Notes: a model not told the origin generated them from the letters alone. A stretch of 64,000 nt of DNA from Elusimicrobia bacterium UBA5214 (GCA_002412545.1 DHVG01000013.1:129315-193314); one strand, 5' to 3'. Numbered from the stretch's first letter, positions 1 through 25,280 are shown. Translations and numbers: made by a program.

Positions 1-1528
1 AATACAAACCTTTAGATATGAATAACGCAATAATCCAATAATAAGGAACAATTTCTACTGCCCGATAGAAACGGTCCATCCCTGGATTCAATGGCCATAA
101 GAAATAGAGTAACAGAGGATTGACAAAAATGAATAGGACAACTGCTGCGATTGAAAAACAATACAGTGCGCCTGGTTCTTTGCGGAAGAAACAGAACAAA
201 AAAGGTAAAAGCAAATAAGCAAGTGTACGCGGGAAGTTTGTCCATAGTGCCTTAAATGGGTCAATTAACGGGTACGTACCTCCAAGCTTAACGACCGGTT
301 TAAACTCAATAGCCATTGCCTCGGGAGTCAGATAGCATTTATTCACCAAGGGCAGATTAATCTTTGCTGTATAATAAGTAACATAGAAAAATGCCGGAAC
401 TGCAATGAATATTATCGCCAAAAGTATTTTTTTGGGTAGGTTTTCTATCTTGTTTGGTATGAATAAGGAAAACAAAAAGAAACAACCTAAAACAAAAAGT
501 AACATATAAAAATAATAGAAATGGGTCAGTGCTATAACTACTCCTAAAAGGGGAAGAATAAATAGGTATCGTTTGTTCCCTTGATAAATGAATTTGAAGA
601 CAAAAAATAGGATTACCAAGAGAATAATATCCCGGGCTATACTGGCCGGATACTGACTGGTGCTCCAGACCCAAAAAAAGGAAGTAAACTTCCCATCCAG
701 GGTGGAATAACTCATTATCCCATCAAAAAAGACAAAAATTGAAGTTGCCACTGTTGCATAGTTAGCTGAATCAAATACTACACGAGAAACCAACCAGAAA
801 GCAAGAACCATCAAGGAAGTTAAAAAAACCGGTGATAATACCCAAAATTCAACCGGGTCAAGGTGCGTGATTTTACTACCCATTGAAAAAAACAAATACC
901 AAATATTATGTCCGTAGATAGGCCTCGGTAAATCTTTAAGAATATAGTGTCCAAATATTATTTTAGGCAATTCAACTAATTTTCTTATTGCGGTCATATG
1001 ATGGATATAATCTCCAGAAGTGAAACCACCAAAATGAGCGCTGAGCAAAACAACAATTACTAAGAGAAATACAAGCACAAGGATTTGTTTTTTATTTTCC
1101 CATTTTTTCTGATTATTTATTTTTACTTTTTTCTTTTCTTTAGGAGATACGGGAGATTGGAAAGAACCTTTTGAAGAAACTGCAAGATTCACCAAACCAA
1201 ACAAAATGCTTAGAAGCAAATAACCACCAGTCAATTGATTCAAAGTTAGACCTCGCAAGTAGGCAAACAATCCTAAAGGAGTAAATAGTAACAACGAGAA
1301 AACAAATGATAAAGGCCACACTTCAAGTAAGTTAATTTTTTCCTTCGGATAAAAGAGTGCCAGGAGAAAGAATCCTGGTACCAGCGTAATCACTAAATTC
1401 ACAAACACAAAGTTAAACCAAAACAATTCACCCAGAATATTTTTGGCGAATTGCCAATAAATGACTATCAAACTAATCAGACCAAAAACAATTTTTACAG
1501 TTTTATTTTCCACTTTATTAAATTCATT
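1..1528 (-). CDS. polytopic integral membrane protein, 3' end beyond window (partial)
   Basis: Manual minus-strand translation: ATG at 1528..1526 (MNLIKWKIKLVKIVFGLISL...) stays open to position 1, >500 codons with many hydrophobic helices. Not in ORF track because no in-window stop; track ORFs 12..245 and 357..674 are wrong-frame pieces inside it. Confidence 0.6.
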
Positions 1529-1591
1529 AATTTTGTAAAATAAAAAAATTCACTAAACTGTGGGAAAAAGAAACCAAAAATTTTTTTACTA

Positions 1592-2449
1592 TTATTTTGA
1601 ACATTTGAATGTAGTATGCATTCCTGGCCCTGGCACTTTTGCTAATAATTTACCTTCCCAATAAATTATAAAATCTACAGTTAAAATAATGCTAAACCAC
1701 AATATATTTTTTCTTTTACTCACTATTAGAAGATTGGATGTAATTTGAGACAAACCAAAAATATTTGTTAGAAAATCAATGAATAAAAATAGGAGGAGAT
1801 CTGCAATTTGTCCCAACAAATGAAGACTATATTTCCTCTCTCTAGGAATTTCTATAAAACCATACTTCCTAAATATTTTGAGTACCTGTTTTCTACTAAA
1901 AGAGTGGATGTGTCCACCGTATATATTTTTTAAGTTTCTGTAAGGCATGAAATTCCCAATAAACTTCCAAATCGATAAAGAGTCACCTTCACAAGGAACA
2001 AATATATGGAGTTTACCTCCTCGTTTTAGCACACGTCTGCATTCAAAAATGAATTTTTCTGTATCTTTAACATGTTCTAATACATCGAAAAAAATAACAT
2101 AGTCAAAAAAATTATCCGGATAAGGAAATAGGTATTCTCCACATACTGTATAGCTAATGTTGCTCTTGTAATTTTGAGCGATACGAATTCCTGAATGAGA
2201 AATATCACAACCATATGCTTCAATTCTGGGTTTGTTTCTTACAATTGCCCGGATAAATCTTCCCGCGCCACAACCTACCTCGAGTACCCTCCCATTATCA
2301 GAATTAATAGCAGTAAGACAGCGTTCTAATCGCAATTTGGCTATACTATATTCTGAATTAGTAATTTTACCTTGTCCATATATATGAGATTCATAAAAAT
2401 TAGGATTACATATCTCTTTTGGTTTTAATATTTGTGAATTCCCTTCCAT
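1592..2449 (-). CDS. class I SAM-dependent methyltransferase with C-terminal hydrophobic tail
   Basis: Motif I LEVGCGAGRF, post-motif FDVLEHVKD...RVLKRGGKLHIFVP typical of class I methyltransferases. Confidence 0.8.
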   Translation of the reverse strand: MEGNSQILKPKEICNPNFYESHIYGQGKITNSEYSIAKLRLERCLTAINSDNGRVLEVGCGAGRFIRAIVRNKPRIEAYGCDISHSGIRIAQNYKSNISYTVCGEYLFPYPDNFFDYVIFFDVLEHVKDTEKFIFECRRVLKRGGKLHIFVPCEGDSLSIWKFIGNFMPYRNLKNIYGGHIHSFSRKQVLKIFRKYGFIEIPRERKYSLHLLGQIADLLLFLFIDFLTNIFGLSQITSNLLIVSKRKNILWFSIILTVDFIIYWEGKLLAKVPGPGMHTTFKCSK

Positions 2450-2481
2450 ATTAGTTCATATTACCGACATAATAATTTTTT

Positions 2482-3894
2482 TTACACTTTACTTATCCCC
2501 TTTGTTTTAATCATATATATTGCACTGACTCCGCTTAATGTATATCTCAAATTTCTAATGTTTGTTAATTTTCTTACACGTTTCAGAATATACTTGGGTC
2601 TGAAATAAAATTGTGTGTAAGCAATGGTAATCAACTTTTCTAATTCCATTTTCGTCATTGTATAGGGAACAAAAACTATCTCCATTCCTTGAAATTTACT
2701 CAAATCATCACAGACTAATTTACCATAGTCATTTAACTTTTCAGCAAGGTCACCGTAAGGAGTAAGTGGAAAAAAGCGAGCATAATCAATGTCAAGTTTT
2801 TTTACAAGTTTAATCGTTTTTAAACCATCCTCAAATGTTTCTCTTGGAATTCCAAAAATAAAAGACGCTTCTACTTCCATTTTGGCTTCTTTAGTCCACT
2901 TTACAGCGTTGAAATTTTGTTCTACAGTGGTACCTTTTCTTAACATATCCAAATTTTTCTGTAACATTGATTCTAAACCATAATGTATTTTCCAACACCC
3001 AGCCGATGCCATCTCTTTTAGTAACTCTTTATCAACTAGGTTGGCTCTTGCTTGAGCAGACCAGAGAATATCCAATTTATTTTTTTTAAGTAATTTTATG
3101 ATTTCTAATAATCTCTTTCTGTTGAGGGTAAGGGTATCGTCCCAGAATGCTATGTCTTTTATTCCATATTCAACCTTTAAATATTTAATTTCTTCAATAA
3201 CCGCTTCCGGACTTCTATAGCGTATTCTTTTTCCTAATACATCGGGAATACAAAAAATACATTGGTACGGACATCCTCGGGTAGTAAAAATATTTGTAAC
3301 CGGTAATTTCTTATATTGGGAAAAAGCCGGCACATAATCCAAAATGTTTACCAGACTCCGGTCAGGAAAAGAAAGTTCATCTACATTTTCAATAACATTC
3401 CGTGAGGGATTTTCAACAATAAACGAATTATCTCGGAAGATTAATCCTTTAATCTTATTTAAATCTCCTCCGTTTTCAATATAATTAACTAATTCTAAAA
3501 GTGTGTACTCACCTTCACCGTATACTAAAGCATCCAATTGAGCAGATTCCTGAAGACATTTCTTTTTAGAGATGGTAGCGTGAACACCACCAATAACAAT
3601 AAATGTTTCTGGGAATTTGTCTTTCAACATAGCGATCATTTCTTTTACTTTTGGCCAAGTAAAGGTCATCACCGAAATACCAATAATCTTTGGTTTTTCT
3701 TCAAAAATTATTCTTAACATTGAAGGAAAGTCAGTCCTACTTCCATCAAGTATGATTACTTGATGACTTGCTCTTTTTAATATTGTGCCCAAAGAGAGCA
3801 ATCCAAGTGGAGGAAGAGTCCCACCCACCTTTGCTATCGCTTTTCCATATCTTTCTTCCAAGGATATTGGCGGTAAAACTAATGCTATTTTCAT
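2482..3894 (-). CDS. B12-binding domain radical SAM protein
   Basis: N-terminal Rossmann-like B12-binding region followed by CxxxCxxC cluster motif (RGCPYQCIFC); 470 aa. Confidence 0.8.
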   Translation of the reverse strand: MKIALVLPPISLEERYGKAIAKVGGTLPPLGLLSLGTILKRASHQVIILDGSRTDFPSMLRIIFEEKPKIIGISVMTFTWPKVKEMIAMLKDKFPETFIVIGGVHATISKKKCLQESAQLDALVYGEGEYTLLELVNYIENGGDLNKIKGLIFRDNSFIVENPSRNVIENVDELSFPDRSLVNILDYVPAFSQYKKLPVTNIFTTRGCPYQCIFCIPDVLGKRIRYRSPEAVIEEIKYLKVEYGIKDIAFWDDTLTLNRKRLLEIIKLLKKNKLDILWSAQARANLVDKELLKEMASAGCWKIHYGLESMLQKNLDMLRKGTTVEQNFNAVKWTKEAKMEVEASFIFGIPRETFEDGLKTIKLVKKLDIDYARFFPLTPYGDLAEKLNDYGKLVCDDLSKFQGMEIVFVPYTMTKMELEKLITIAYTQFYFRPKYILKRVRKLTNIRNLRYTLSGVSAIYMIKTKGISKV

Positions 3895-4207
3895 TTTGTA
3901 CTTTATAATTGTATTTAGCAGTTCTTAACTTTTTTCCCAATTACTAACATTTCTCCACAAGAACTCCAGAACATTATCCAGCTTATTCGTCGTGGCATTA
4001 CCCTAAACAAGCAATTCACAAATGGTGTAAAAAAATAATTTTAACGTCTCTTTGTATTAAGAACTGCATGTACGTAAAATAAATTAAAGAATTTTCTTAC
4101 TGTTCCTTTATAAATCATTCAAAAACCTGTCTTTTCCAAAAGTTTATCTATGGTAAGTGCTGAAAAATAGTAATAACGCTTTGATATAAAAATATACCTA
4201 TTTTTCT

Positions 4208-4572
4208 TTAAAAAATTTTTGCCCTTAGGGAATCAATATCAGAAGTAACAATTATACAAGGACATTCTTTCTTAATAATTTTGTTTATCTCTTTTAACAA
4301 AGTAGTAGAATCAATTACATACTCAACAAGATCAAACATTGTAACCACATTAAAAAAATTGTCATTATATTTCATTTCTTCTAAAGTTCCAGTAGAAATT
4401 CTATCGTTGAATTTTCTCTTTGCTATTAAAATTGATTCAATTCTTCTTTTCTAGGTTGTGGATACTGTCTGATTAACCCACAGGAGGTGCATTGCACGAT
4501 TTTAAATTTATCTCTCTGAAAAAGTCCTTTATAATTATTTGAACCACAAAGATTACAACCGGTATTTTTCAT
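4208..4572 (-). pseudogene. remnant of a zinc-ribbon class I methyltransferase (internal deletion/frameshift)
   Basis: ATG at 4572..4570 overlaps the TGA stop of the upstream radical SAM gene (ATGA). Frame A gives MKNTGCNLCGSNNYKGLFQRDKFKIVQCTSCGLIRQYPQPRKEELNQF then TAA at 4428..4426; a second frame continues to a stop at 4210..4208 with ...FNVVTMFDLVEYVIDSTTLLKEINKIIKKECPCIIVTSD, resembling the C-terminal half of the 1592..2449 methyltransferase. The SAM-binding motif I region is missing. Confidence 0.5.
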
Positions 4573-5975
4573 CTTCCAGAAAAATATTTTATGCCTACTC
4601 TAATAAAGTATAAAGTCCGTTTTAAAGGAAATATCATTTTTATATAGTAAAAGATTATTTTAGGTCTTAAATAGAATTGAATCATAATCATTTGTTGAAT
4701 CCTTTTCAATTTCTTTATGGATATTGAATCCGGAGAATATACGGGAATAGCAAGGGAACCTTTTGATAGATGAAGAGAGGAATATTCTATTTTTTTTTCA
4801 CTCTTAAGCTGTTCTGTTATTTCAGAACCGGGTAGGGGGCAAAACAAAGAAAAAGTTGCTCCGACGAGATCCAGTTCTAGTGCAAGTTGTTTGGTTTTCA
4901 TAATGTCCTCAATAGTTTCATCAGGATATCCTAAAATAAAAAAAGCATGAATAGGTAAACTGCATCGCCTTACCAACGATACTTTTTCTCTTATCAAATT
5001 TAGGTTTAATCCTTTCTTCATATTGTTAAGAATCTTTTGAGAGCCGGATTCAATACCAAGAACAATCGAGTGACATCCTGATTTCTTCATCCAAGGCAAT
5101 ATTTCTTCGGTTAATGAATTTAACCTAATTCCGTTGTGCATTGTCCACTTTATTTTTATATTATTCTCAATTAGAGATTTACAAAATTCTATTACAAATG
5201 AAGAGTTGTGTATAAAATTGTCATCGGTAATTAAAATTTCTTCTACTTTAAATTTGTAATATAATAATTTAATTTCTGAGATTACACTCTCAAGGGAACG
5301 CGAACGCATTTTTCTCCCTGATATTTTATAACCGACACAGAAAGTACATCTGTATGGACATCCTCTGGTAACCACTATGGGTGCTGATTTCATTGTTCTT
5401 GCCTGAAAAGTCGGCATAAATTTATGATAAAGTGACAAATCCAAAACTGTTCCCCAAGGAGGATGCCCAAAAGAGTCAACATTCTCATAAAATATTGGTT
5501 CATTGCATATAATTCCTTTTTCTGTCCTATAGATTAAACCTGGTATTTTGTTTGCCCATCCAGTGATATCTTTCTTTGATGTAAGGCAATCTATGAACTT
5601 CGGTACACTAATTTCTCCTTCCCCTTGGAAAGCATAATCAATCCATTTTAATTGGTTTAATACTTCATAGGGAGCTGATGAAGGATGGGGTCCTCCTGCA
5701 AGAGTTATGGTATTCGGCCTGTTTCTTTTTATAATTTCTGATATTTTATCTACTACGGAAACATCGGTAGAAAACATCGTAATTCCTAATACATCGGGAT
5801 CGACTTCGTTAATTCGCTTTATTACCGATTGCATATCCAATCTTTCCGCATGAGCATCAAGAATTACAACCTCATACCCTCTTTTCAATAAAGCAGTAGC
5901 AAGATAACCTAATCCTAAAGGAGGCATTACCCAAAAAGAACTTTTTTTTATGGGGACCAATAGAAAAATACGCAT
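4569..5975 (-). CDS. B12-binding domain radical SAM protein (paralog of 2482..3894)
   Basis: CxxxCxxC motif RGCPYRCTFC and N-terminal B12-binding-like domain; same architecture as the neighbouring gene. Confidence 0.8.
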   Translation of the reverse strand: MRIFLLVPIKKSSFWVMPPLGLGYLATALLKRGYEVVILDAHAERLDMQSVIKRINEVDPDVLGITMFSTDVSVVDKISEIIKRNRPNTITLAGGPHPSSAPYEVLNQLKWIDYAFQGEGEISVPKFIDCLTSKKDITGWANKIPGLIYRTEKGIICNEPIFYENVDSFGHPPWGTVLDLSLYHKFMPTFQARTMKSAPIVVTRGCPYRCTFCVGYKISGRKMRSRSLESVISEIKLLYYKFKVEEILITDDNFIHNSSFVIEFCKSLIENNIKIKWTMHNGIRLNSLTEEILPWMKKSGCHSIVLGIESGSQKILNNMKKGLNLNLIREKVSLVRRCSLPIHAFFILGYPDETIEDIMKTKQLALELDLVGATFSLFCPLPGSEITEQLKSEKKIEYSSLHLSKGSLAIPVYSPDSISIKKLKRIQQMIMIQFYLRPKIIFYYIKMIFPLKRTLYFIRVGIKYFSGR

Positions 5976-6026
5976 AAATTTTAAATTCTAGAAAATTTAA
6001 TTTAAGATATTTTTAATAAGCGCTTT

Positions 6027-7181
6027 TTATTTGTTAATTTCCTTTTTGACTGCTTCAAATACTTCGTCAACTTCTATCGCCTGTAAACATTTTGGTTCAT
6101 TATACCGGCAACGACCTGTTTTCTGGTCATACACATGAATACAAGGACTACAAGAAATGTTCTTAAAGAACACTTTATGTCTATTACCTCTCGGACCATA
6201 AATTACTGGTGTTTCCGGACCAAAAAATGAAATGGTTGAAATATCAAGGGCATAAGCAATATGTAAAGGACCAGCGTCATTAGAAATAAATAATCTTACT
6301 TTTGAGATAAAACTTACCAATTGCTTTAAGTCAAGTTTACCTGCAAGATTTATTATTTTGTTTAAACTATTAGTTGCATTAATTATCTCTCCTACATAAT
6401 GTCTTTCATCTTCTGCCCCAATCAAAACAATTTTTACTTTGTTACTAAGATTAGCGATCCTGTCAATTAAACTAACAAATTTTTCTTTTGGCCATCTTCT
6501 TTGAAGACCAAGTGGACCAGCATTCACATTTATTCCAATTATATTATCCGATTTGTTAATTTCATATTCTTGCAATAAATTTTTTATGGTTTCATCAGAG
6601 GGAGTTTTTATTTCTGGATGGTATATTTGGTTAATAGTAGTCACTCCCACTGCGGCATTAATAAAATTTTCAGAAACATGCCAGTAATAATTAAAGGGAA
6701 TGTTAACATCATGAAAATTTCCTCTCCATATATCCCATGCATGAAAACCTACCCTTTTTTTTGCTCCGGCAAGGAAACTGAAAATTGCAGAAAATCGTGT
6801 AAAGAATTCAAAATCAAATAATATGTCATATTTCATTTTTCTTATTTTTATAAGTAGTTTTAGAACGTTTAATATAAAGGGAGTAAAATTTTTTTCTAAT
6901 CTTAATACTAATACATTGTCCAATTCTGGAATTAGTTCACATATTCCTTTATTCTGATGGAAGGTAAGAAAATCAATTCTTACTTCGGGATACCTTTGTC
7001 TCAACAACTTTATAGCAGGTGTAGTTTCTATAATACTTCCAACTCCCCAGAATTTTATTATAAGAATCTTTCCCACTTTTTCTATATTTACTCTTTTCCG
7101 TAGCCAGTTAAATGGCTGCAAAATAAGGCATAACAATTTGCCAACCCATAAATCTATTCTACGCATTGTCCATAATGTCAT
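6027..7181 (-). CDS. glycosyltransferase family 9 (heptosyltransferase-like)
   Basis: GT9 C-terminal signature NDAGPLHIAYALDISTISFFGPETP; 384 aa. Confidence 0.75.
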   Translation of the reverse strand: MTLWTMRRIDLWVGKLLCLILQPFNWLRKRVNIEKVGKILIIKFWGVGSIIETTPAIKLLRQRYPEVRIDFLTFHQNKGICELIPELDNVLVLRLEKNFTPFILNVLKLLIKIRKMKYDILFDFEFFTRFSAIFSFLAGAKKRVGFHAWDIWRGNFHDVNIPFNYYWHVSENFINAAVGVTTINQIYHPEIKTPSDETIKNLLQEYEINKSDNIIGINVNAGPLGLQRRWPKEKFVSLIDRIANLSNKVKIVLIGAEDERHYVGEIINATNSLNKIINLAGKLDLKQLVSFISKVRLFISNDAGPLHIAYALDISTISFFGPETPVIYGPRGNRHKVFFKNISCSPCIHVYDQKTGRCRYNEPKCLQAIEVDEVFEAVKKEINK

Positions 7182-7890
7182 TTCTATTTTTCTCCTTAGA
7201 ACCGAGGTAGAGATAAATGTAAAATTAATCCCATATTTTAAGTATCTTGCTGACCGTTATTGTCCAAGTTAACAAAGTAACCCCAATATTTGGACAGCAA
7301 GGTGTTTTTGGGAACTAGCAATGAAGATTTAAACTTTAAGTTGTTGATTAATAAATCAAAAAATAACTAAACTCGCCAATATTATTTGTAAATCGGGTAC
7401 AGTAGAAATAGAGGAAACTATTAGTAAAAAGTCGTACCACCCTGTCTATTTTGGAATCTTTTGAGTAAATACGGTGCGGTTTGCTTAAAAATTTCTGTTT
7501 AGAATAAAATCCTCTGTTTACGGTGTTAGCGAATAGATGTCCTTTATTATAAAGTTATAAAATTATCCTTAATTATTATTTTAACAAAAATATTGGGAAA
7601 AAACAAGGTTTTAGGTAGGAATTTAATTCAGAAAACTTGTTAAGACCACTCAAAGATTAGGACATAAGTTAGAATTGGTAATTAAAAGTTAAGGTTCTAT
7701 TTGAAAGAAATAAGCAATGATATTCTTTTCGTTCACTTACAGGCAAAATTTTTGTTTATCCGAATATTTATAGGACAAATTGATAACTGTTATTTTTTTA
7801 TTCTTTTTTCAATTTAATCTCTTTTGAATTAAACTTTATACGTCATTTCAGTACAATCATCTTTTTTGTATCCACAAAACTACGGCTTCA

Positions 7891-7937
7891 CCCTCACCTT
7901 TTTCCTCTCCCCTCGGAGGGAGAGGGTCGGGTGAGGG
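7891..7937. repeat. GC-rich nested inverted repeat (two-stem hairpin) just past the stop of the LamG/T9SS gene
   Basis: Outer stem ccctcacc (7891..7898) pairs with ggtgaggg (7930..7937); inner stem cctctccc (7904..7911) pairs with gggagagg (7918..7925). Strongly GC-rich against an AT-rich background; no U-tract follows on the minus strand. Confidence 0.8.
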
Positions 7938-7945
7938 GCAATCTT

Positions 7946-8952
7946 TTACTTCAATACTACCATTTTCTTAGTGTCAACAAAACTACCGGCTTTCACCTGG
8001 TAGTAGTAGATTCCTCTTGAGAGTTCGTCACTTTGATTAAATACAACTTTATGCGGACCAGCCGTTTGCCACTCGTCAACCAAGGTTGCTACTTCCTCTC
8101 CACCAACATTGTATAACTTTATGGTTACCTGACAATCCTGAGCAACGGAATACTCAATTGTTGTTGCTGGATTAAACGGATTTGGATAATTTTGTCCCAG
8201 AGAGTTGACATCTGCAGTTGCTGATGGACTAACTACGATTGTCCGTGGCTTACCGGGTTTCACATTTCCTTCGTAATGTGCTTTAATTTCTTCAGCACTT
8301 AAAGCACGGTTGTAAACCCGAGATTCATCGATTGTTCCTTTGAACCAATTGTAATCTCCGGAAAGACAGTGTGCTCCAATTTGTAAAGGAACATCATTAG
8401 TCACTATATGACCTGAAATTAGTCTGTTGCCTGTTTCAACACCGTTTACATATATTCGCTCAACAGAACCATCGTATGTCCCAACGATATGCGCCCACTC
8501 ACCAAAGGTAAGATTAACTGACGAAACTATGTAATTCCAAGTATTAGTATAAAGTACTAACTGAGGAGTTATTCCATTAGGTTGCAACTCCAGTACATAA
8601 CCACTTCATCCTCCCCACTTTGAACGATTATTTGATGATCTCCCGTTGTTTTAATAGGCTTAATCCACGCTTCAATTGTAATTGCATCTGTAATATCGAA
8701 ATTACTCGAATCATTCACACGTACATAATCATCCACTCCATCAAAACTTAGTGCTTTGCCAACTTTACCATCTACCCAGGTCGCACCGTAGATTGTTCCA
8801 TCATTACTATTTCCTGAATAGTCATGGGCGATTGTTCCTTCCCCTTCATCAAAACTCCAGTAACCAACTAAACCTTCTTCTGCTTTAAGCCGCTGTGTAA
8901 GAAGAAATAGTCCAAATTCTACCATAACCAAAAATCCAAAAATTTTTTTCAT
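7946..8952 (-). pseudogene. secreted LamG (concanavalin-like) domain protein with T9SS C-terminal sorting domain, split by an apparent frameshift
   Basis: Track ORFs 8569..8952 (signal peptide, LamG N-half GLVGYWSFDEGEG...IEAWIKP) and 7946..8587 (LamG C-half ...GEWAHIVGTYDGS..., then NYPNPFNPATTIEY...YYYQV T9SS-type tail) overlap by 19 nt in different frames. The downstream ORF starts at TTG. Frame switch near 8587..8625 beside a C-rich run; could be a real pseudogene or an assembly indel. Confidence 0.55.
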
Positions 8953-9393: not shown

Positions 9394-10218
9394 CTATTCG
9401 GATAACCCACTTTTAATTTCTTGAAGAGAGATGCTTTCTTTAAGAATAAAGAAAAGTCCAAGGAGAGTAACTAAAAGAAAATTAAAGAAATGGTGAGTTA
9501 AAGTAAAACTTAAGGCAAGTTCTTTGTTAATTTTATAAAAACTTAAAGCCAACACACCAAAAAATTCCCATGTCCCGATGTAACCCGGAGAAGAAGGAAT
9601 AGTTACACTTACTCCTACAATTCCTAAAAAAAACATCGCCGCGCTAAAAGGTAACTTCATATTGAAAGCGAAAAACATTACATAAACGCCTGAAATGTAA
9701 ATAAACCAAAGAATAAACGAAATAAAAAAAATCTTTAATAGAAGGTGCCCTTGTCGTAAAACTTTAAATCCGCTCACAAAAGAATTAAAAAGTTGGACAG
9801 ATCTCTCAGCAAGTTTTACGGAAAAAAAAGAAATTATTTTCTTCCCTAATTTCTCAGTTTGTTTCTCAAACTTAAGCAAAAAAGTAAAAAAAACTGCTAA
9901 ACCAAAAATAACAATAACCAAAGCAAAAATATTTATCTCTTTAGGAAGGACAAAAAAAAATGAAATGATAAAAAAAATAGAAATTAAGAAAATTAGGTCA
10001 GTCAGCCGCTCTAAAACTACAGTAGAAAAGACCGTACTTTTACTAATTTTTTCTTTTCGTCCTAAAAAATATGCCTGGACTAAATCACCAAAACGAAAAG
10101 GAAAAAGATTATTTGCTGCCTGACCAACACAGGTTGCGGAAACTAAACTAAATAAAGGTACCTTTTTTTGGGGAAGAAGCAAGTAACACCAACGAATACT
10201 ACGGACAAATAAACCCAA
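9394..10218 (-). CDS. flippase-like membrane protein (lysylphosphatidylglycerol synthase TM-region family, UPF0104-like); true start probably upstream
   Basis: Multi-TM protein with FGDLVQAYFL and PSSPGYIGTWE motifs. Track start is TTG; the frame stays open ~50 codons further upstream (..KKALWFGLLISVFFLVLVFYKIDFKEFF..) with no ATG/GTG/TTG. Confidence 0.6.
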   Translation of the reverse strand: MGLFVRSIRWCYLLLPQKKVPLFSLVSATCVGQAANNLFPFRFGDLVQAYFLGRKEKISKSTVFSTVVLERLTDLIFLISIFFIISFFFVLPKEINIFALVIVIFGLAVFFTFLLKFEKQTEKLGKKIISFFSVKLAERSVQLFNSFVSGFKVLRQGHLLLKIFFISFILWFIYISGVYVMFFAFNMKLPFSAAMFFLGIVGVSVTIPSSPGYIGTWEFFGVLALSFYKINKELALSFTLTHHFFNFLLVTLLGLFFILKESISLQEIKSGLSE

Positions 10219-18761: not shown

Positions 18762-20906
18762 TTATTTAAAATGTTCTACCGTTATTGAAAAACTCGTTGA
18801 CCAAGTTTTATCTGGTTTGATGTTCAACTTCCAGTGAGGAAGAAAAATTGTCCCTTGATAGGTGCGTTCAAAACCAGATTCGGAAGAAGAAACTGTCTCC
18901 AAAGGATAATACCAAACATTTACTGGTTTAGGAAAGTCAAATCTTATTTTCATTTTTTGGTTTTCATCAATTCTTTCCCAAGAATTCTTTACTAAAAGTT
19001 CACCACCATCATCTATTTTTTCAGATAAAGCAAGATTAAATTCACAAGCAAACCAAATACCAATTACAGAGGTAGAAAAATTACCAAGACGATAATTAAC
19101 CTGAATTAAAGCCGAATTATCAACTACAATTTCTTTTTCTAAAGAAAGAGGGATTTTTTCTTCACCAGACCAAACTACACCCCGTCTGCGAAAATGAATC
19201 TTAATTTGATTTTTACCCTTTTTTACTTCCAAATTGTAAGATTGATTAACAAAATCACCTTGCTCACCGTATTGACATTTCCGAAAATCATCCCAAGAAG
19301 TATGCGGATGAAGAAAATGGTCAATTAGACAATTACGATTGTACCAATCGTAAAAAAGGTAATTTTCCAATCCTTCTTCTTTAACTTTTACCAGTTCATG
19401 AATAGTTTTTACTGTTTCACTCTCCTTTGGTCGTTCTTTCAAATATTCTTGTAAATGTTTATGATATACTTCTGACCGACGAGTAAGAACATTGACTAAA
19501 TTTACTCCCGCTGGAATAAAATCCCATTCAAAAAGTGTTCCTCCTTGAGCTAAATCAAAATATAAATTATAAGTTGAAGTTTCTACAATAAGTTCTTCTT
19601 TACCATCACAATTAAAATCAATTAAGTCAGAATGTATTTTTTCCTTTTTTATTAAGGAATTAACAATATCTTCGGCTTTAATTAAATTGCGATAAACTGC
19701 TTGTCGTAAATGGGGTAAATAAAGCCCACCAAATACACCGTGCCAATAAGCACAATTACATTGTCCTGCATAGAGCAAATCCAGCGCTTGCTGGATTTGC
19801 GGTGTAAGGTGTAAGGTATAAGGTGTAAGAGTACTTTCTTTACCTTTCACTTTACACTTTACACTTTCAACTGCTTTATTAACTTTTTCACTAACATAAA
19901 GCATTTTTTTATGAATATTATTTGCTTCTGGATATTTAACTAAAAAATTGCGCCAAAAACCACCCTTTAAAAAGGGACGTAATTTTTCTTTAACTACTCC
20001 CGGTAAAACATCTAAATTTTTTAATACTCGAGAAAAATCTTCTCCTATTCTTATATTTGGTATTGCCCATTCCGACATTTCAAAATATGCCGCTGTCGGA
20101 AGATATATCCTTCCACGTGGAGAAAACTGGTCTAAATACTCAGAAAAAGTCATTGAGATTAACCAATCAGCATTCGCTTCTAAAAGAGTAAAAAATTTAT
20201 CCAGCCATCCATCACCATACACATGTTTATGTGTCTCTGGCCAAATACCAAATTTTTCACCGTCATCAATAATAGTTAGACCAATATCTTCTTTTCTCTC
20301 ACTGTAAGAACGTAAATATTCAATTATTTCCTCTGGAATACCAAAAGGGATAAGGTAACGTAAACGTTGACTAATTGGAAAAATTCTTAAAGTTTCTCCT
20401 TCTTCTTCCGTAAGAAAATAACCGGTTAGGTCTTCGGGATGAATACCGGCAGAGAGAAAATGTGTGTCATCAACAATTGTATACTCAATTTTACTTTCGG
20501 CAAGTGATTTCGCTAAATGTGGTTCCCACACTCTTTCCGCTAACCAAACACCACTTGCAGTTATCCCAAATTCTTCCTTCAAGAATTTAGTTTGTTTAGC
20601 AATTTGTCCAAATTTATCTCGGTCAGGTATTACCGGAAGAATTGGCTCGTAATAACCACCGGTAAGTAGCTCAAGCCGTCTATCTTTAAGCAATTTTTTT
20701 ACCCGGTCAAGAAATTCGGGATGGTGTTCTTTTAGCCATTCCCAAAGTATACCACTACAATGAAAGTTAAGTTTAATCAACGGATGTCTGAGTAAAACTT
20801 CAATAAATGGTGCATATGCTTTTTGGTATGCTTTTTCAAAAATCTCCGGGAAATTACCTATTGGCTGATGATTATGAATTCCAAAAAGAAAATATATTTT
20901 TTTCAT
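18762..20906 (-). CDS. glycoside hydrolase family 57 protein (alpha-amylase / 4-alpha-glucanotransferase-like)
   Basis: GH57 hallmark GIHNHQPIGNF near N-terminus; 714 aa. Confidence 0.8.
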   Translation of the reverse strand: MKKIYFLFGIHNHQPIGNFPEIFEKAYQKAYAPFIEVLLRHPLIKLNFHCSGILWEWLKEHHPEFLDRVKKLLKDRRLELLTGGYYEPILPVIPDRDKFGQIAKQTKFLKEEFGITASGVWLAERVWEPHLAKSLAESKIEYTIVDDTHFLSAGIHPEDLTGYFLTEEEGETLRIFPISQRLRYLIPFGIPEEIIEYLRSYSERKEDIGLTIIDDGEKFGIWPETHKHVYGDGWLDKFFTLLEANADWLISMTFSEYLDQFSPRGRIYLPTAAYFEMSEWAIPNIRIGEDFSRVLKNLDVLPGVVKEKLRPFLKGGFWRNFLVKYPEANNIHKKMLYVSEKVNKAVESVKCKVKGKESTLTPYTLHLTPQIQQALDLLYAGQCNCAYWHGVFGGLYLPHLRQAVYRNLIKAEDIVNSLIKKEKIHSDLIDFNCDGKEELIVETSTYNLYFDLAQGGTLFEWDFIPAGVNLVNVLTRRSEVYHKHLQEYLKERPKESETVKTIHELVKVKEEGLENYLFYDWYNRNCLIDHFLHPHTSWDDFRKCQYGEQGDFVNQSYNLEVKKGKNQIKIHFRRRGVVWSGEEKIPLSLEKEIVVDNSALIQVNYRLGNFSTSVIGIWFACEFNLALSEKIDDGGELLVKNSWERIDENQKMKIRFDFPKPVNVWYYPLETVSSSESGFERTYQGTIFLPHWKLNIKPDKTWSTSFSITVEHFK
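19801..19871. repeat. inverted pair of heptamer arrays inside the GH57 CDS
   Basis: GTGTAAG x4 (19802..19829, one variant GTATAAG), 15-nt spacer, then TTTCAC/TTTACAC/TTTACAC/TTTCAAC (19845..19871) in inverted orientation. In-frame; encodes ...VKCKVKGKESTLTPYTLHLTP... Confidence 0.85.
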
Positions 20907-22573
20907 TCCTTCTCCTTTGAAGAAAATAGATAATAGTCAATCTCTGGGAATAGATTGTCAATATCTTCAATCTCTTGCAGATAATTTATTTCCTTTTGAC
21001 CAAATTCACTTTTTTCTAATATACCAATTAAATTACGGAATCTTTGATAATGCAAAAGGAAGCGTTGAGTTGCATATTCTTTCGCTTGTCCAGTAGTAAC
21101 TAAGAAAGGCCAGTCTGAGGATTGAAGAAGCAAAAGTTCACGGGCAGCTTGGTTAAGTAAACCACGGGACACACCTTTTGAATGAGTGTATTTTTTCACC
21201 GCTGATTCCATTAACTTTTCCGCTTCATAGATATATGGCCAGAACCACTCGGTTTCTGAATTATACCAGACATAATGTTTCCCACCATTACCCCAAGATG
21301 ATTCCGGTAAATCAATAACTTCTACTGGATTAGAACAAGTGAAATACTCACTTAAAGTCATCGCTTTAACATTGGGATTCAAATATATTTTTTTAACCAC
21401 TTCTTTTAACCAGAAAATTCCTTCAAACCACCAATGTCCAAAAAGTTCTGTATCATACGGTGAAACAACAATTCCGTATTGCCCATTTCTTTTTCTAAAA
21501 TTAAGAAGGAGGTCTTCTACTAAATGGTTGAAATGGTCAGCGTTCTCGTTAATTTTTAACACTGTATTTTCTGGGACATAGATTTGTTTAAGACCTAAAT
21601 CAATTTTTCGGTCAGTAATTCGCCAATACTGCAATCCAGAATCAGAATCTTTTTTATGAAATTCGCGATAGTTACCATCACCCGGATATCCCCATTCACC
21701 AGACCAAACTTGTAATCCAGTTTCTTTATTCCGGGAAAAAACTGCACAACCACTCTTCAAAAAATAAGGAAGAAAACTCGTCCCTCGACTTTTTCTTTCA
21801 CACTCAATTTTTGGTGCTTTTACTTCACCATACGGACCTATTCTTTTCTCTGCTGAATATGTCTCCATCCCTTCTAAAGCATGTGTATCACAGATAAAAT
21901 ATTCTACTCCTTGTTCAACAAGAAATTCATCCAAAGCTGGTTTATAATACTTTTTCCCTGCCTCTTCAAAATAGTATTCCGGCCGATAACCACATTCTGG
22001 TAACCAAAAACCACGTGGTCTTTTACCGAAATACTTACGATAAGTTTCTATTCCTATCTTAACCTGCGCATAAATTGAAGAATCACATTTTAATAACGGC
22101 AAATAACCATGAGTTGCTGTGCTACATAGAACCTCAATACAGTTCTCATTCTGCAGTTTACGGAAAGCACTAAGCAGATCGCGTTGATATCTTTCATAGT
22201 AACTCTTTTTAACTTTAGAAAAAATCGTTCTATAAAAAATTGCCAAACGTTCATAAGCGTAATCTTTACGAGAAGAAAACTTTCGCGCATCTCTATCTGC
22301 ACGTTCAATTTCTTTATCCATAAAATGTTCAAAACGACTCAGCAAATACTGGTCATTCAGTTGTTCCATAAGTACGGGAGTAATACTGATAGCGAACTTT
22401 GCTTTAATTCCCTCTTCAAGTAAATCATAAATAATATCTAAGAGAGGAATATAAGTTTCCATTAATCCTTCATAGAGCCATTCTTCACCAAAAGGCCATT
22501 CACCTGCCTTCCGGACAAAAGGAATATGACTATGCAACACCAAAGCAAATGCACCTACTGATTCGTTATTCAT
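20903..22573 (-). CDS. GH57-family 1,4-alpha-glucan branching enzyme-like protein
   Basis: GH57 branching-enzyme style N-terminus ALVLHSHIPFV. Track ORF extends to 22636; start preferred at internal ATG 22573..22571 (MNNESVGAF..., AGGAG-like RBS ~9 nt upstream), which removes the 70-nt overlap with the upstream gene. Confidence 0.75.
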   Translation of the reverse strand: MNNESVGAFALVLHSHIPFVRKAGEWPFGEEWLYEGLMETYIPLLDIIYDLLEEGIKAKFAISITPVLMEQLNDQYLLSRFEHFMDKEIERADRDARKFSSRKDYAYERLAIFYRTIFSKVKKSYYERYQRDLLSAFRKLQNENCIEVLCSTATHGYLPLLKCDSSIYAQVKIGIETYRKYFGKRPRGFWLPECGYRPEYYFEEAGKKYYKPALDEFLVEQGVEYFICDTHALEGMETYSAEKRIGPYGEVKAPKIECERKSRGTSFLPYFLKSGCAVFSRNKETGLQVWSGEWGYPGDGNYREFHKKDSDSGLQYWRITDRKIDLGLKQIYVPENTVLKINENADHFNHLVEDLLLNFRKRNGQYGIVVSPYDTELFGHWWFEGIFWLKEVVKKIYLNPNVKAMTLSEYFTCSNPVEVIDLPESSWGNGGKHYVWYNSETEWFWPYIYEAEKLMESAVKKYTHSKGVSRGLLNQAARELLLLQSSDWPFLVTTGQAKEYATQRFLLHYQRFRNLIGILEKSEFGQKEINYLQEIEDIDNLFPEIDYYLFSSKEKE

Positions 22574-23000
22574 TGCTGGGAACTCCTTTTTTAAGGAAGA
22601 AATCTTTAGCGTTGAGAATGTTTTTCCTTCCATCATTAATCACCTGTTCGATTAATTCTTCTAAAGATAAATTTACCCTTTTGCTTAAAACAGAAATAAG
22701 TAGATACAAGTTAAAACCGCTAACCAATCCACATTTAATATTCTTTTTTTCTATTTCTTTGACCACTGAAAGTGCAAGATTACATGGTGTTCCACCACAC
22801 ATGTCCGTCAAAATAAGCACCCCTTCCGGACAATTTAACTCATAGATTTTTTCAATAATTTGTTGTTTAAGTATCTCCGGGTCTTGGTCAGAAAAGAAAG
22901 AAAAGGAATAAGTCTTCTCCTGAGGACCAAGAATTTCTATTGCCGATTCCAACATTTTTTCACCAAAATTACCACGGGTGAGTATAATTACAGTTGTCAT
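22566..23000 (-). CDS. PTS EIIA-Man-family domain protein with His-to-Arg substitution at the expected phospho-acceptor position
   Basis: MTTVIILTRGNFGEKMLESAIEILG and LTDMCGGTPCN match the EIIA-Man fold pattern (IVIGTHG...; LVDTWGGSP), but TRG replaces THG. Confidence 0.55.
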   Translation of the reverse strand: MTTVIILTRGNFGEKMLESAIEILGPQEKTYSFSFFSDQDPEILKQQIIEKIYELNCPEGVLILTDMCGGTPCNLALSVVKEIEKKNIKCGLVSGFNLYLLISVLSKRVNLSLEELIEQVINDGRKNILNAKDFFLKKGVPSNE

Positions 23001-23015
23001 CTAATTAGACACTAT

Positions 23016-23867
23016 CTATTTATCTATATCTCGGTGCAAAAGTTTGAGAACAAATTTTTTCTTTTCTAAAAATTTTTTTAAAGCATTAGCCACTACTACC
23101 GAACGATGTTTACCTCCGGTGCAACCTATCCCAATCGTCAGATAAGATTTACCTTCCTTAATATACCAAGGAATAAGAAACTCAATTAAGGAAAAAAATT
23201 TTTTTAAAAAACTTTTTCCCACGGGGTTATCCAAAACATATCTTTGAATTTTTTCCTCATTACCATCAAGATTGCGTAATAAATTTTCATATTGTGGGTT
23301 AGGTAAAAATCGCACATCAAAAATTAAATCTACATCTGGTGGTAATCCATACTTGTAACCAAAAGATATAATTGACAGATTAAGAATTCCTTTTTCCATT
23401 GGTCTAAGAAATTTAGTAACTACTTCTTTTAACTCACCGGGAGTTAAATTACTTGTATCAATAATTTTATCAGCCCTTGCTTTAATTTCGGTTAATCTTT
23501 TCCTTTCTTCACGAATACCCTCAATAATGCTTTTACCCAGAGGATGTCTCCTGCGTGTCTCGGAATATCGACGAACCAAAATCCGCGTGTTCGCTTCAAG
23601 AAAAATAATTTTATAATTAAACCCTTGCCGTTTTAATTCATTCAAAAAATCAAAAAATGTATCCAAAAATTCACCTTCTCGAATGTCAATGCCTAATGCT
23701 ACTTTGCTTAATTTGCCTTCCGATTGATTTACAATTTCACCAAATTTTGGAATTAAAGTAGTAGGGAGATTATCAACACAAAAGAATCCCATATCTTCAA
23801 AAGATTTAAGTGCTTGACTTTTCCCGGCACCGGAAATACCGGTAATAATAAAAAAATTTGTGCTCAT
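23016..23867 (-). CDS. rapZ: RNase adapter protein RapZ (P-loop NTPase, UPF0042)
   Basis: Walker A GISGAGKS at N-terminus; 283 aa; next to hprK/ptsN. Confidence 0.85.
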   Translation of the reverse strand: MSTNFFIITGISGAGKSQALKSFEDMGFFCVDNLPTTLIPKFGEIVNQSEGKLSKVALGIDIREGEFLDTFFDFLNELKRQGFNYKIIFLEANTRILVRRYSETRRRHPLGKSIIEGIREERKRLTEIKARADKIIDTSNLTPGELKEVVTKFLRPMEKGILNLSIISFGYKYGLPPDVDLIFDVRFLPNPQYENLLRNLDGNEEKIQRYVLDNPVGKSFLKKFFSLIEFLIPWYIKEGKSYLTIGIGCTGGKHRSVVVANALKKFLEKKKFVLKLLHRDIDK

Positions 23868-24841
23868 TTTTGTTTCTTCTGCATTAATTTAATTAAGTAT
23901 TTATCTAATTCTCGGGCAGAATAATATCCTTTACTCTTCAACCGTTGATTCATCGCTGCTACTTCAATCAAAACAGCAATATTTCTTCCTGGGCGCACGG
24001 GAATAACCAATTCTGGTATTTTTACTCCCAAGATTTCTGTATAATTATCTTCCAAACCTAAACGCTCGTATTCTTTAGATTCATTCCATTCTTCTAAATG
24101 GACAACTAATTCAATTCGTGTAGATTCAAGTATCGCACCCATACCGAAAAGTGTGCGCACATCAATTATCCCTAAACCACGAATTTCCATATGATGGGAA
24201 ACAATCCCTTTCCCTGAACCAATAAGTACTCCACCAGGTTTTTGTCGTATTTCTACAACATCATCAGTGACAAGCATATGCCCGCGTTTAATTAACTCCA
24301 ATGCTGTTTCGCTTTTCCCAATTGCACTTTCACCAAGAATTAGAACACCTAGACCATATACGTTGGTCAAAGTTCCATGCATCGTAATAAGCGGAGCAAG
24401 TTTTTCTTCTAAATAAGCAATCAATTCAGTAATAAATGGTGGCGTCCCAAGAGAAGTTAAAAAGAGTGGGACATAGTATCGCTGAGCAATAGTAATTAAC
24501 TCCCTTAATGGTTGTACGTTACGAGTGATAATTGCACAGGGTGGCTCGTAAGAAAAAAATTTATCCAAAATTTCAATTCTTTTTTTCTTGGTTAAAAACT
24601 GTAGATAACTATGTTCACCACCACCAATAATTTGTATTCGTTCATACCGAAAATATTTAAAATAACCAGTTAAAGTCAACCCGGGACGATTTATCTCAGT
24701 CACTGTGATTTGACGATTCAAACCTTTTTCACCTGCTAACAGTTTTAAACATAAATCTTTACCTTTATCTCGGAACAATTCCTCAACAGTAAATTTGGCC
24801 ATTCTTATTGGATAATCCTTTCTAATATTTATCTTCTTCAT
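23864..24841 (-). CDS. hprK: HPr kinase/phosphorylase
   Basis: P-loop GESAIGKSETALELIKRGHMLVTDD and HprK C-terminal signature; 325 aa. Confidence 0.9.
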   Translation of the reverse strand: MKKINIRKDYPIRMAKFTVEELFRDKGKDLCLKLLAGEKGLNRQITVTEINRPGLTLTGYFKYFRYERIQIIGGGEHSYLQFLTKKKRIEILDKFFSYEPPCAIITRNVQPLRELITIAQRYYVPLFLTSLGTPPFITELIAYLEEKLAPLITMHGTLTNVYGLGVLILGESAIGKSETALELIKRGHMLVTDDVVEIRQKPGGVLIGSGKGIVSHHMEIRGLGIIDVRTLFGMGAILESTRIELVVHLEEWNESKEYERLGLEDNYTEILGVKIPELVIPVRPGRNIAVLIEVAAMNQRLKSKGYYSARELDKYLIKLMQKKQK

Positions 24842-25280
24842 TAATAATTCTGATTACCTCCTCAGGGTTTTTTGCCTCTTTTAAATTCTGTCGGAAAAAT
24901 TTATCTTTTAATAGACGTGAGATTTTTGCTAATGCTTTTAAATGTGTTCCAGCGGCTTCTACCGGGGCAAGGAGAAGAAAAATTAAATATACTGGTTCAC
25001 CATCTAAAGCGTCAAATTCAATACCTTTTTTCGAAATACCAAAAGCAGCAACAATTTCATTTACGATTTCGGTTTTACCATGCGGAATTGCTACACCTTG
25101 GCCAATACCAGTAGAACCAAGTTGTTCTCGTTCCATAAGGATTTTCACTATTTCTTCCGAATCTTTCACTTTTTTTGCTTTCACTAAGAGATTAACTAAT
25201 TCTGTAATTGCTTCTTTCTTCCCCCGAGTTTCTAAATCGGTAACAATTGCTTCCCGACAGAGAAAATCCAAAATTTTCAT
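24822..25280 (-). CDS. ptsN: PTS IIA-like nitrogen-regulatory protein (EIIA-Ntr)
   Basis: EIIA-Fru type fold with phospho-His box GQGVAIPHGK; 152 aa. Confidence 0.8.
   Translation of the reverse strand: MKILDFLCREAIVTDLETRGKKEAITELVNLLVKAKKVKDSEEIVKILMEREQLGSTGIGQGVAIPHGKTEIVNEIVAAFGISKKGIEFDALDGEPVYLIFLLLAPVEAAGTHLKALAKISRLLKDKFFRQNLKEAKNPEEVIRIINEEDKY

Follow-up and report, generated by a model that had tools for sequence, protein, structure and literature searches.

A candidate envelope-glycan tailoring module with two B12-type radical SAM proteins in Elusimicrobia bacterium UBA5214

We analysed a 64,000 nt stretch of DNA from Elusimicrobia bacterium UBA5214 (GCA_002412545.1 DHVG01000013.1:129315-193314), referred to as the window in the following, with positions counted from its first letter. 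Near its start, at the end of a 64-kb lipopolysaccharide (LPS) locus, lies a group of genes that are all on the minus strand. They encode two radical S-adenosylmethionine (SAM) proteins with a B12-binding domain (rSAM1 and rSAM2), a class I methyltransferase (MT), a glycosyltransferase (GT) of family GT9 and a large polytopic membrane protein. We read the region as an uncharacterised module for the tailoring and assembly of an envelope glycan, which recurs in uncultured bacteria and archaea and would probably act on a lipid-linked sugar. To this reading we assign a probability of roughly 0.45. A preliminary description, made from the sequence, had listed these five open reading frames (ORFs) together with a methyltransferase remnant; all five were recovered at the same coordinates, on the minus strand and with support from Pfam. 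The module comprises the following features:

1..1513, minus strand: N-terminal ~504 codons of a glycosyltransferase of the GT-C fold (P0241, Memb668 family), from its predicted structure
1592..2449, minus strand: MT285, a class I SAM-dependent methyltransferase of 285 aa (Pfam Methyltransf_23/11/25)
2482..3894, minus strand: rSAM1, 470 aa, with Radical_SAM and B12-binding domains (Pfam)
3927..4572, minus strand: pseudogene of a zinc-ribbon class I methyltransferase, from three-frame translation and colinear tblastn matches
4569..5975, minus strand: rSAM2, 468 aa, with Radical_SAM and B12-binding domains (Pfam)
6027..7181, minus strand: non-canonical GT9, 384 aa (Pfam PF01075, 95 bits against a cut-off of 22)

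The GC content is 32% at the module, slightly low GC being noted for the cluster. Proteins identical to those of the module are also encoded in NCBI assembly GCA_002400355.1 and on one contig of the Joint Genome Institute (JGI).

Genes of the module

The preliminary description took both radical SAM proteins to be cobalamin-type enzymes, in agreement with their domain architecture. As expected for class B of the radical SAM enzymes, each contains the CxxxCxxC motif within a Radical_SAM domain (PF04055) and, N-terminal to it, a B12-binding domain (PF02310). With Pfam cut-offs of 32.1 bits for B12-binding and 29.5 bits for Radical_SAM, the scores of the two domains were 86.1 and 90.6 bits for rSAM1 and 75.8 and 78.5 bits for rSAM2. 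The [4Fe-4S] motif of rSAM1 is C208-x3-C212-x2-C215, with three cysteines that are invariant in 32 orthologs, and that of rSAM2 reads TRGCPYRCTFC. Hydropathy analysis revealed no hydrophobic segments in either protein.

A profile comparison with known class B families, which had been suggested as a check, placed both proteins far below the cut-offs of BchE, HpnJ and the other families. BchE (TIGR02026) was the top NCBIfam match with 236 bits for rSAM1 and 181 bits for rSAM2, at an equivalog cut-off of 481 bits. HpnJ (TIGR03471, cut-off 577.6 bits) followed with 196 and 167 bits, such that all four scores were under half of the respective cut-off. Weak matches to HpnR and to the ladderane lipid radical SAM family TIGR04072 (139 bits, rSAM2) were also far under cut-off, and neither protein reached the cut-off of any characterised NCBIfam family. 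The closest relatives of solved structure were AprD4, MgmA (PDB 9CCB), TokK, TsrM, OxsB and CysS, with low scores throughout. The best sequence match in the PDB was AprD4 for rSAM1 and MgmA for rSAM2.

The locus had been interpreted before as a duplicated module of radical SAM and methyltransferase genes with one copy in decay, which was not borne out. rSAM1 and rSAM2 are 31% identical and belong to different clades. Orthologs of rSAM1 (47-68% identity) were found in Endomicrobiales, Aminicenantales, Nanoarchaeota and metagenomic contigs. For rSAM2 a single ortholog at 75% identity (P0122) was followed by a broad family at 40-44%, and the lists of the best 120 matches of the two proteins had no entry in common. 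The low identity and the separate ortholog sets rule out a recent tandem duplication of the two genes. A conserved rSAM1-rSAM2 pair was ruled out as well, since the pairing is not kept in other loci: orthologs of rSAM1 are accompanied there by B12-type radical SAM paralogs that are not orthologs of rSAM2, and the reverse is also true. Judged from these comparisons, the two proteins would represent a combination of two old clades. Among the matches listed, the clade is known from uncultured lineages only, and a scan of genome contigs for the motif RGCP[FY]xCxFC gave, again among the matches listed, only relatives of at most 39% identity. The P0122 alignment extends across residues 1-468 of rSAM2 and thus supports its long start.

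No long ORF is present between rSAM1 and rSAM2. Instead, three colinear methyltransferase fragments occur there in three frames. In a tblastn comparison with the intact methyltransferase MT283 of the related locus L086, residues 3-35 aligned at ~4557-4459, residues 120-190 at ~4426-4214 and residues 190-283 at ~4214-3927 (combined E 8e-18); the methyltransferase MT300 of locus L088 gave E 3e-10. The zinc-ribbon piece forms a 48-aa ORF at 4426-4572 that overlaps the rSAM2 stop by 4 nt, a piece with motifs II/III lies at 4208-4375, and a frameshift affects the C-terminal piece. A deletion has removed approximately 84 residues, SAM motif I among them, and the remnant contains several in-frame stops. 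Colinear homology together with these disabling lesions identifies the remnant as a real pseudogene. The decayed methyltransferase of the preliminary description was thus real, but it extends further than 4208..4572, over approximately 3927-4572. Since the 678-nt remnant is identical across three assemblies of the population, it is not an error of one assembly. Its GC content of 27.7% is the lowest within the cluster.

In L088, the closest related locus, an intact 300-aa zinc-ribbon methyltransferase occupies the same position. The dead gene is orthologous to the methyltransferases of L088 and L086, to which it is ~29-34% identical. It is not a paralogous copy of MT285 because the remnant is of the zinc-ribbon type and MT285 is not; this origin was therefore ruled out. 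An ancestral zinc-ribbon methyltransferase between the two radical SAM genes decayed here, with a different enzyme, MT285, following rSAM1.

MT285 is intact. It scored 72 and 71 bits with Methyltransf_23 and Methyltransf_11, and Methyltransf_23/11/25/12/31 were all above cut-off; no NCBIfam equivalog cut-off was reached. The protein has a motif I of the GxGxG type (VLEVGCGAG), lacks a zinc ribbon and carries one C-terminal hydrophobic segment (residues 208-230).

The GT9 of the module resembles WaaC, WaaF and WaaQ in its GT9 domain, in a full-length alignment with HepI and HepII and in a shared C-terminal Cys motif. Its best NCBIfam match, heptosyltransferase II (WaaF), reached 121.3 bits and stayed below the equivalog cut-off of 134.6 bits. 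Unlike those enzymes it carries an N-terminal extension, which is ~37 aa long, contains the motif K/R-x-I-D-x3-G and includes a hydrophobic segment. To compare catalytic residues, we aligned it with five further GT9s adjoining radical SAM genes and with three canonical GT9s, besides a motif scan. In the residue-level alignment Ser49 falls onto Asp13 of HepI (2GT1), which we take to be the general base, and onto the Gly-Asp of 1PSW and 3TOV. All six GT9s that adjoin rSAM1 or rSAM2 orthologs have Gly-Ser at this position, in contrast to HepI, HepII and 3TOV, which have Gly-Asp like the canonical GT9s encoded in the window. The same six share an extension of 25-45 residues with the K/R-x-I-D-x3-G motif, which is hydrophobic in several of them. 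In view of the extension and the replacement of Asp by Ser, we do not count the protein, as far as its sequence indicates, among the canonical LPS heptosyltransferases. GT9s of the canonical type, unlike this one, sit elsewhere in the window, beside WaaA. Altogether, six GT9 paralogs are present in ~70 kb when one just past the window start is counted.

The ORF of the membrane protein P0241 is open from 1 to 1528 and runs off the window start. The source contig provides the called start, a GTG at ~1513, and a full length of 668 aa. A word-indexed search found three relatives and an exhaustive phmmer search 124 representative proteins. The AlphaFold model based on an alignment of 47 sequences reached a pLDDT of 90.4 and a pTM of 0.92, while a 3-sequence alignment had given a pLDDT of 35 only. 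The best structural matches of the model were AftA, AglB/STT3, DPY19 and ArnT. GT-C enzymes characteristically have a multi-helix membrane domain, which a soluble domain often follows, and an outward-facing loop with a conserved acidic residue. The model agrees with this fold, and in the loop the family conserves the motif residues D168, H172 and R177. The WWDYG motif of the oligosaccharyltransferase type (STT3/AglB/PglB) is not present in P0241. There was no Pfam match to YfhO (PF09586) either; members of the family match DUF6077, DUF6541, DUF1616 and PTPS_related. Profile-profile comparison of the family with the YfhO-annotated archaeal proteins that adjoin rSAM1 orthologs in Nanoarchaeia gave 96% probability (E 4e-9). 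On the basis of the model, P0241 is a predicted GT-C glycosyltransferase, and the profile comparison suggests a YfhO-like remote homolog. Its clearest homolog, P0243, is surrounded by genes for two GT2s, a GT4, SIS_2 (GmhA-like) and HAD (GmhB-like, phosphatase) proteins, a transaldolase and an epimerase, which we read as a putative heptose-pathway context.

Conservation of the gene neighbourhood

To see whether the module recurs, we fetched ~170 related loci and scored the partner genes using locally built hidden Markov models and a hydropathy filter, since tblastn was too insensitive for the divergent methyltransferase and membrane partners. In the rSAM1 ortholog clade a methyltransferase was found within 2.5 kb in 6/7 non-redundant loci, a GT9 in 5/7 and a large polytopic membrane protein in 7/7. 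For 99 distant homologs the same counts amounted to 13%, 0% and 19%, respectively. The density of membrane proteins in the loci of the rSAM1 clade was 0.257 per kb nearby, compared with 0.019 per kb at 4-10 kb distance. The co-localisation that the preliminary description had proposed is thus conserved in related genomes. Membership of a known family and missing co-localisation, which it had named as arguments against its proposal, were both looked for and neither was found.

The gene order varies between the loci. It is Wzy, GT9, radical SAM, 608-aa membrane protein and methyltransferase in L090-L092, and 577-aa membrane protein, GT9, radical SAM and methyltransferase in L087. In L086 a GT9 and a methyltransferase are followed by two radical SAM genes, a 507-aa membrane protein and a GT2; in L004 the order is YfhO, radical SAM and methyltransferase. 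L088, which holds the 75% ortholog of rSAM2, has a GT9 (42% identical to that of the window), the radical SAM gene, the intact zinc-ribbon methyltransferase and another B12-type radical SAM gene. In L090-L092 and in L088 the module is flanked by Wzx and Wzy genes. Moreover, two independent fusions of a radical SAM protein with a methyltransferase were found, P0092 (694 aa) and a 779-aa ORF in L035.

The link to GT-C proteins extends to more distant relatives. Members of the Memb668 family lie beside related, more distant radical SAM genes in L006, L024, L110 and L155, and the large membrane neighbours of more distant relatives were PMT_2/PMT or YfhO proteins in all of the 10 sampled cases. In L171 and L172 radical SAM genes 43-44% identical to rSAM2 are interleaved between genes for a small GT2 and a PMT_2 GT-C protein.

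Two further observations concern the composition of such loci. The Woesearchaeota metagenome-assembled genome (MAG) in which L024 lies encodes, in the 8933 region, a GT9 that shares the N-terminal extension and 34% identity with that of the window, alongside the Memb668-family GT-C protein. This archaeal MAG has no LPS (compare the Nanoarchaeia-type loci L004 and L094), so the module is not tied to LPS as such. In addition, some related glycan loci hold 4-10 B12-binding radical SAM ORFs within ~20 kb, alongside genes for GT4, Wzy_C, PMT_2 and methyltransferases (L088 from Logan SRR17498766, L172, L006, L018 and L077). Such loci suggest that many divergent clades of B12-type radical SAM proteins are used in varying combinations.

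The surrounding locus

According to Pfam scans of ~45 ORFs the window is a single long co-directional LPS locus. Essentially all substantial ORFs across 1-64000 are on the minus strand, and the GC skew is negative over the entire first 14 kb, which is the part that was profiled. The LPS genes comprise KdsA/B/C/D, LptB, LptC/A-like, LpxK, a lipid A acyltransferase and WaaA. Within 28820-50293 (minus strand) lie KdsA, KdsB, a PfkB kinase, a GmhB-like HAD phosphatase, the lipid A acyltransferase, LpxK, GT2, GT4, WaaA and DUF374 genes, together with three large membrane proteins of the sulfatase family (EptA/LtaS-like). Three GT9 genes are part of this region, two of canonical size and a third, longer one of 485 aa. 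The PfkB kinase and the GmhB-like phosphatase fit ADP-heptose synthesis. Also within the LPS locus, a 431-aa protein at 32416-33711 (minus strand) has both DUF3108 and a membrane region that is PEMT-like (phospholipid methyltransferase). The glycan genes are separated from the Lpt/Kds block by ordinary genes at 18762-25280 (minus strand), which are nevertheless part of the envelope locus. They encode two GH57 glucan enzymes and a regulatory set of HPrK, RapZ, EIIA(Ntr), EIIA(Man) and PtsI. A scan of 1400-8000 for promoters and terminators gave matches at chance level only.

Upstream of the GT9 gene a 764-nt gap without ORF (7182-7945, minus strand) holds the relic end of a C-terminal sorting tail of the type IX secretion system (T9SS), 'SFVDTKKMIVLK'. 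It nearly repeats the end 'GSFVDTKKMVVLK' of the adjoining gene at 7946-8952 (minus strand), whose product is a secreted protein of the LamG type (Laminin_G_3) that ends in a T9SS tail. The relic tail suggests a past rearrangement at the border of the cluster. The LamG gene itself is split by a frameshift into overlapping ORFs of 127 aa and 213 aa, such that it is either a second pseudogene beside the cluster or the product of a sequencing error. Further upstream one more membrane protein gene was found:

9394..10218, minus strand: membrane protein of the LPG_synthase_TM (UPF0104) family (Pfam 146 bits)

In the upstream direction its frame stays open as far as 10362, where the preceding Band_7 gene has its stop, but this stretch contains no canonical start, and the first 47 profile positions precede any ATG, GTG or TTG. 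From the sequence, translation would either begin at a non-canonical codon or have lost its start codon. The family also adjoins B12-type radical SAM genes in the Nanoarchaeia locus L004, and tentatively the protein is a possible flippase-like partner of the module.

Past the window start the cluster goes on (L001 14454-21413 of the source contig) with a GT9, an SDR epimerase/dehydratase, a 244-aa methyltransferase (MT244), a SPASM/twitch-like radical SAM protein, an RmlD-like reductase, a split transketolase and a further radical SAM protein. The transketolase pair, MT244 and the epimerase have counterparts of 45-53% identity in an alphaproteobacterial MAG (L058), and the transketolase pair is present in an Omnitrophica MAG (L015) as well. 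The genes beyond the window may thus form a separate conserved sub-module for sugar branching.

A proposed pathway and its alternatives

We propose that the region makes up the proximal half of a cluster for the tailoring and assembly of a surface glycan, resembling an LPS outer core or O-chain, with the recurrent four-part module as its core. The extended GT9 would transfer a sugar onto a lipid-linked acceptor on the cytoplasmic side of the membrane. The sugar is probably heptose from ADP-heptose, a donor that this genome is apparently equipped to synthesise. Since Ser takes the place of the general-base Asp, the acceptor group is possibly a phosphate. One or more of the class B radical SAM proteins would then radically modify that sugar. 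C-methylation, the commonest class B chemistry, would be the most likely reaction, with an HpnJ-like rearrangement as the alternative. The class I methyltransferase would add a conventional O- or N-methyl group. Finally, the GT-C protein would move the tailored sugar or glycan from a polyprenyl-phosphate carrier to its final acceptor outside the cytoplasmic membrane. The preliminary description had considered an envelope lipid or glycan pathway plausible. The glycan part is in agreement with the GT-C fold and the LPS locus, but for the lipid part the neighbourhood provided no support.

The proposed sequence of steps has precedents. Three-component lipid-carrier routes that end in a GT-C enzyme are ArnC/ArnD/ArnEF/ArnT, CsbB-GtcA-YfhO and the conversion of decaprenyl-P-ribose to arabinose by DprE1/E2 followed by Aft/Emb. 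In these routes a cytoplasmic GT loads the lipid carrier, enzymes tailor the sugar and the GT-C enzyme transfers it outside. The module likewise co-encodes a cytoplasmic GT and a GT-C protein with tailoring enzymes between them, and related loci even show the order GT2, radical SAM and PMT_2. It differs from these routes in that the tailoring enzymes would be B12-type radical SAM proteins and a class I methyltransferase rather than a deformylase or epimerase, and that a GT9 of the GT-B fold would replace the GT2 as the cytoplasmic GT. A second precedent is the synthesis of the hopanoid cyclitol ether by HpnI, HpnK and HpnJ, in which HpnJ, a BchE-like radical SAM protein with a B12 domain, acts on a lipid-bound sugar. 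The module similarly pairs a GT with BchE/HpnJ-like radical SAM proteins, presumably for a membrane-anchored sugar. Unlike HpnJ, however, these scored 196 and 167 bits against 577.6, have GT9 and GT-C partners and come with a dedicated methyltransferase that is linked or fused. Neither hpn nor shc turned up among the window ORFs scanned or on the contig beyond the window start. Sugar C-methyltransferases of class B are found in natural-product pathways, namely GenK, GenD1, MoeK5 and Fom3 (PMC12931638). With these the module proteins have in common the B12-binding and radical SAM architecture and, probably, a carbohydrate-type substrate and a methylation, but no family-level membership was found and the context is an envelope glycan instead of antibiotic synthesis.

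Several points weigh against our proposal. The P0004 ortholog locus has no adjoining methyltransferase, and L089, with an rSAM2 relative at 43% identity, has none of the partners. The partner methyltransferases do not form one orthologous group, and MT285 is not orthologous to those of the other loci. By phmmer, jackhmmer and hhalign the large membrane proteins of L090 (608 aa), L087 (577 aa) and L086 (507 aa) had no detectable similarity to the GT-C family. In two N-extended GT9s that do not directly adjoin a radical SAM gene, Glu (Gly-Glu) is found in place of Ser. AprD4 and ArsL have similar domains but do not bind B12 (PMC12931638). As AprD4 tops the structure matches of rSAM1, it is the Pfam domain that suggests the use of cobalamin, and binding of the cofactor by rSAM1 and rSAM2 is thus presumed. 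Sequence does not separate methylating from non-methylating class B enzymes (PMC12931638), so that an HpnJ-like sugar rearrangement would be possible as well. Given the nearby pseudogenes, the module may be partly inactive in this genome. When the literature was searched for links of B12-type radical SAM proteins with GT9, YfhO, O-antigen, polysaccharide or LPS, no relevant paper came up, and the roles of all module members are predicted from their genes.

Tailoring could also occur before transfer. The radical SAM proteins and the methyltransferase would then act on a sugar that is soluble and activated by a nucleotide (ADP-, NDP- or CMP-linked), the GT9 would use the finished donor, and the GT-C protein would belong to the same pathway as a polymerase-, ligase- or transferase-type enzyme without direct hand-over. 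Among class B enzymes, the substrates of GenK and Fom3 are likewise small and soluble. The P0028 ortholog locus, where a radical SAM-methyltransferase pair is set among genes for a UDP-sugar dehydrogenase, epimerases, DegT aminotransferases, a GFO oxidoreductase and an acetyltransferase, is consistent with this. No GT9 or large membrane protein was called near P0028. The genes beyond the window start are rich in nucleotide-sugar enzymes, and a soluble substrate would suit the lack of hydrophobic segments in rSAM1 and rSAM2. However, in most loci the radical SAM genes are placed tightly between those for a GT and a GT-C or other membrane protein, and the enrichment of GT-C proteins reaches distant relatives. 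Also the hydrophobic segments at the C-terminus of MT285 and at the N-terminus of GT9 argue against a soluble substrate. Overall we consider tailoring of a soluble sugar plausible, but less likely than our proposal. A modification of the membrane lipid itself is considerably less probable. Here the radical SAM proteins would methylate or cross-link acyl, isoprenoid or polyprenol chains in the manner of HpnP/HpnR or of the ladderane/tetraether radical SAM enzymes. The weak matches to HpnR and TIGR04072 hint in this direction, and the polyprenyl-phosphate carriers that the GT-C protein needs could be the target. Yet these matches are all far under cut-off, genes for hopanoid, isoprenoid or fatty-acid synthesis were absent from the ~45 window ORFs scanned, and the neighbours in every related locus are glycosyltransferases and sugar-modifying enzymes.

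The dead methyltransferase inside the operon raises the question whether the whole module is a decaying, largely non-functional relic, whose ORFs are intact by chance or due to a recent inactivation. The split LamG/T9SS gene and the relic T9SS tail next door, the LPG_synthase_TM gene without canonical start and the slightly low GC would fit such a scenario. On the other hand, five ORFs of 285-668 codons are uninterrupted in DNA of 32% GC, in which stops arise easily, and the catalytic Cys motif, motif I of the methyltransferase and the conserved GT-C residues are all kept. Moreover, rSAM2 is 75% identical to its ortholog over the full length, compared with ~29-34% for the remnant, indicative of selection on the radical SAM protein but not on the remnant. 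A general decay is thus improbable. Least likely by far is that the radical SAM proteins are anaerobic Mg-protoporphyrin cyclases of the BchE type or C-methyltransferases of peptides, including ribosomally synthesised and post-translationally modified ones. BchE is indeed the top NCBIfam match and the name given in the JGI annotation, and MgmA, the best structure match of rSAM2, is a protein glutamine C-methylase. The BchE annotation was rejected on the scores of 236 and 181 bits against 481. In addition, the scanned window ORFs of this Elusimicrobiota host include no (bacterio)chlorophyll genes, and the neighbourhood is uniformly glycan-related, without precursor peptide, protease or transporter context.

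Returning to the tailoring of a lipid-linked sugar, one may ask how far it could apply outside this locus. As a tentative and rather doubtful generalisation, a large branch of the B12-type radical SAM proteins would tailor polyprenyl-phosphate-linked or lipid-anchored sugars between a cytoplasmic GT (a GT2 or a base-less GT9 that glycosylates phosphate) and a GT-C protein. Uncultured Elusimicrobiota, Omnitrophota, CPR and DPANN would thus display C-methylated or radically rearranged surface sugars, by way of a so far unrecognised form of the three-component glycosylation pathway. In the library that was searched, no paper connects B12-type radical SAM enzymes with GT9, YfhO, O-antigen or LPS, and a 2026 review lists no envelope-glycan member of class B and describes its largest groups as unexplored (PMC12931638). 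The locus and the ~170 related loci provide a testable functional context for two such unexplored clades, consisting of a consistent genetic coupling to GT-C proteins, to methyltransferases including fusions, and to an atypical GT9. If the proposal is true, many 'BchE-like' genes now mis-annotated as chlorophyll cyclases would have a role in envelope-glycan diversification, and new C-branched or rearranged sugars would be predicted on the essentially unstudied surfaces of CPR, DPANN and Elusimicrobiota. Radical chemistry would then join the lipid-carrier glycosylation pathways.

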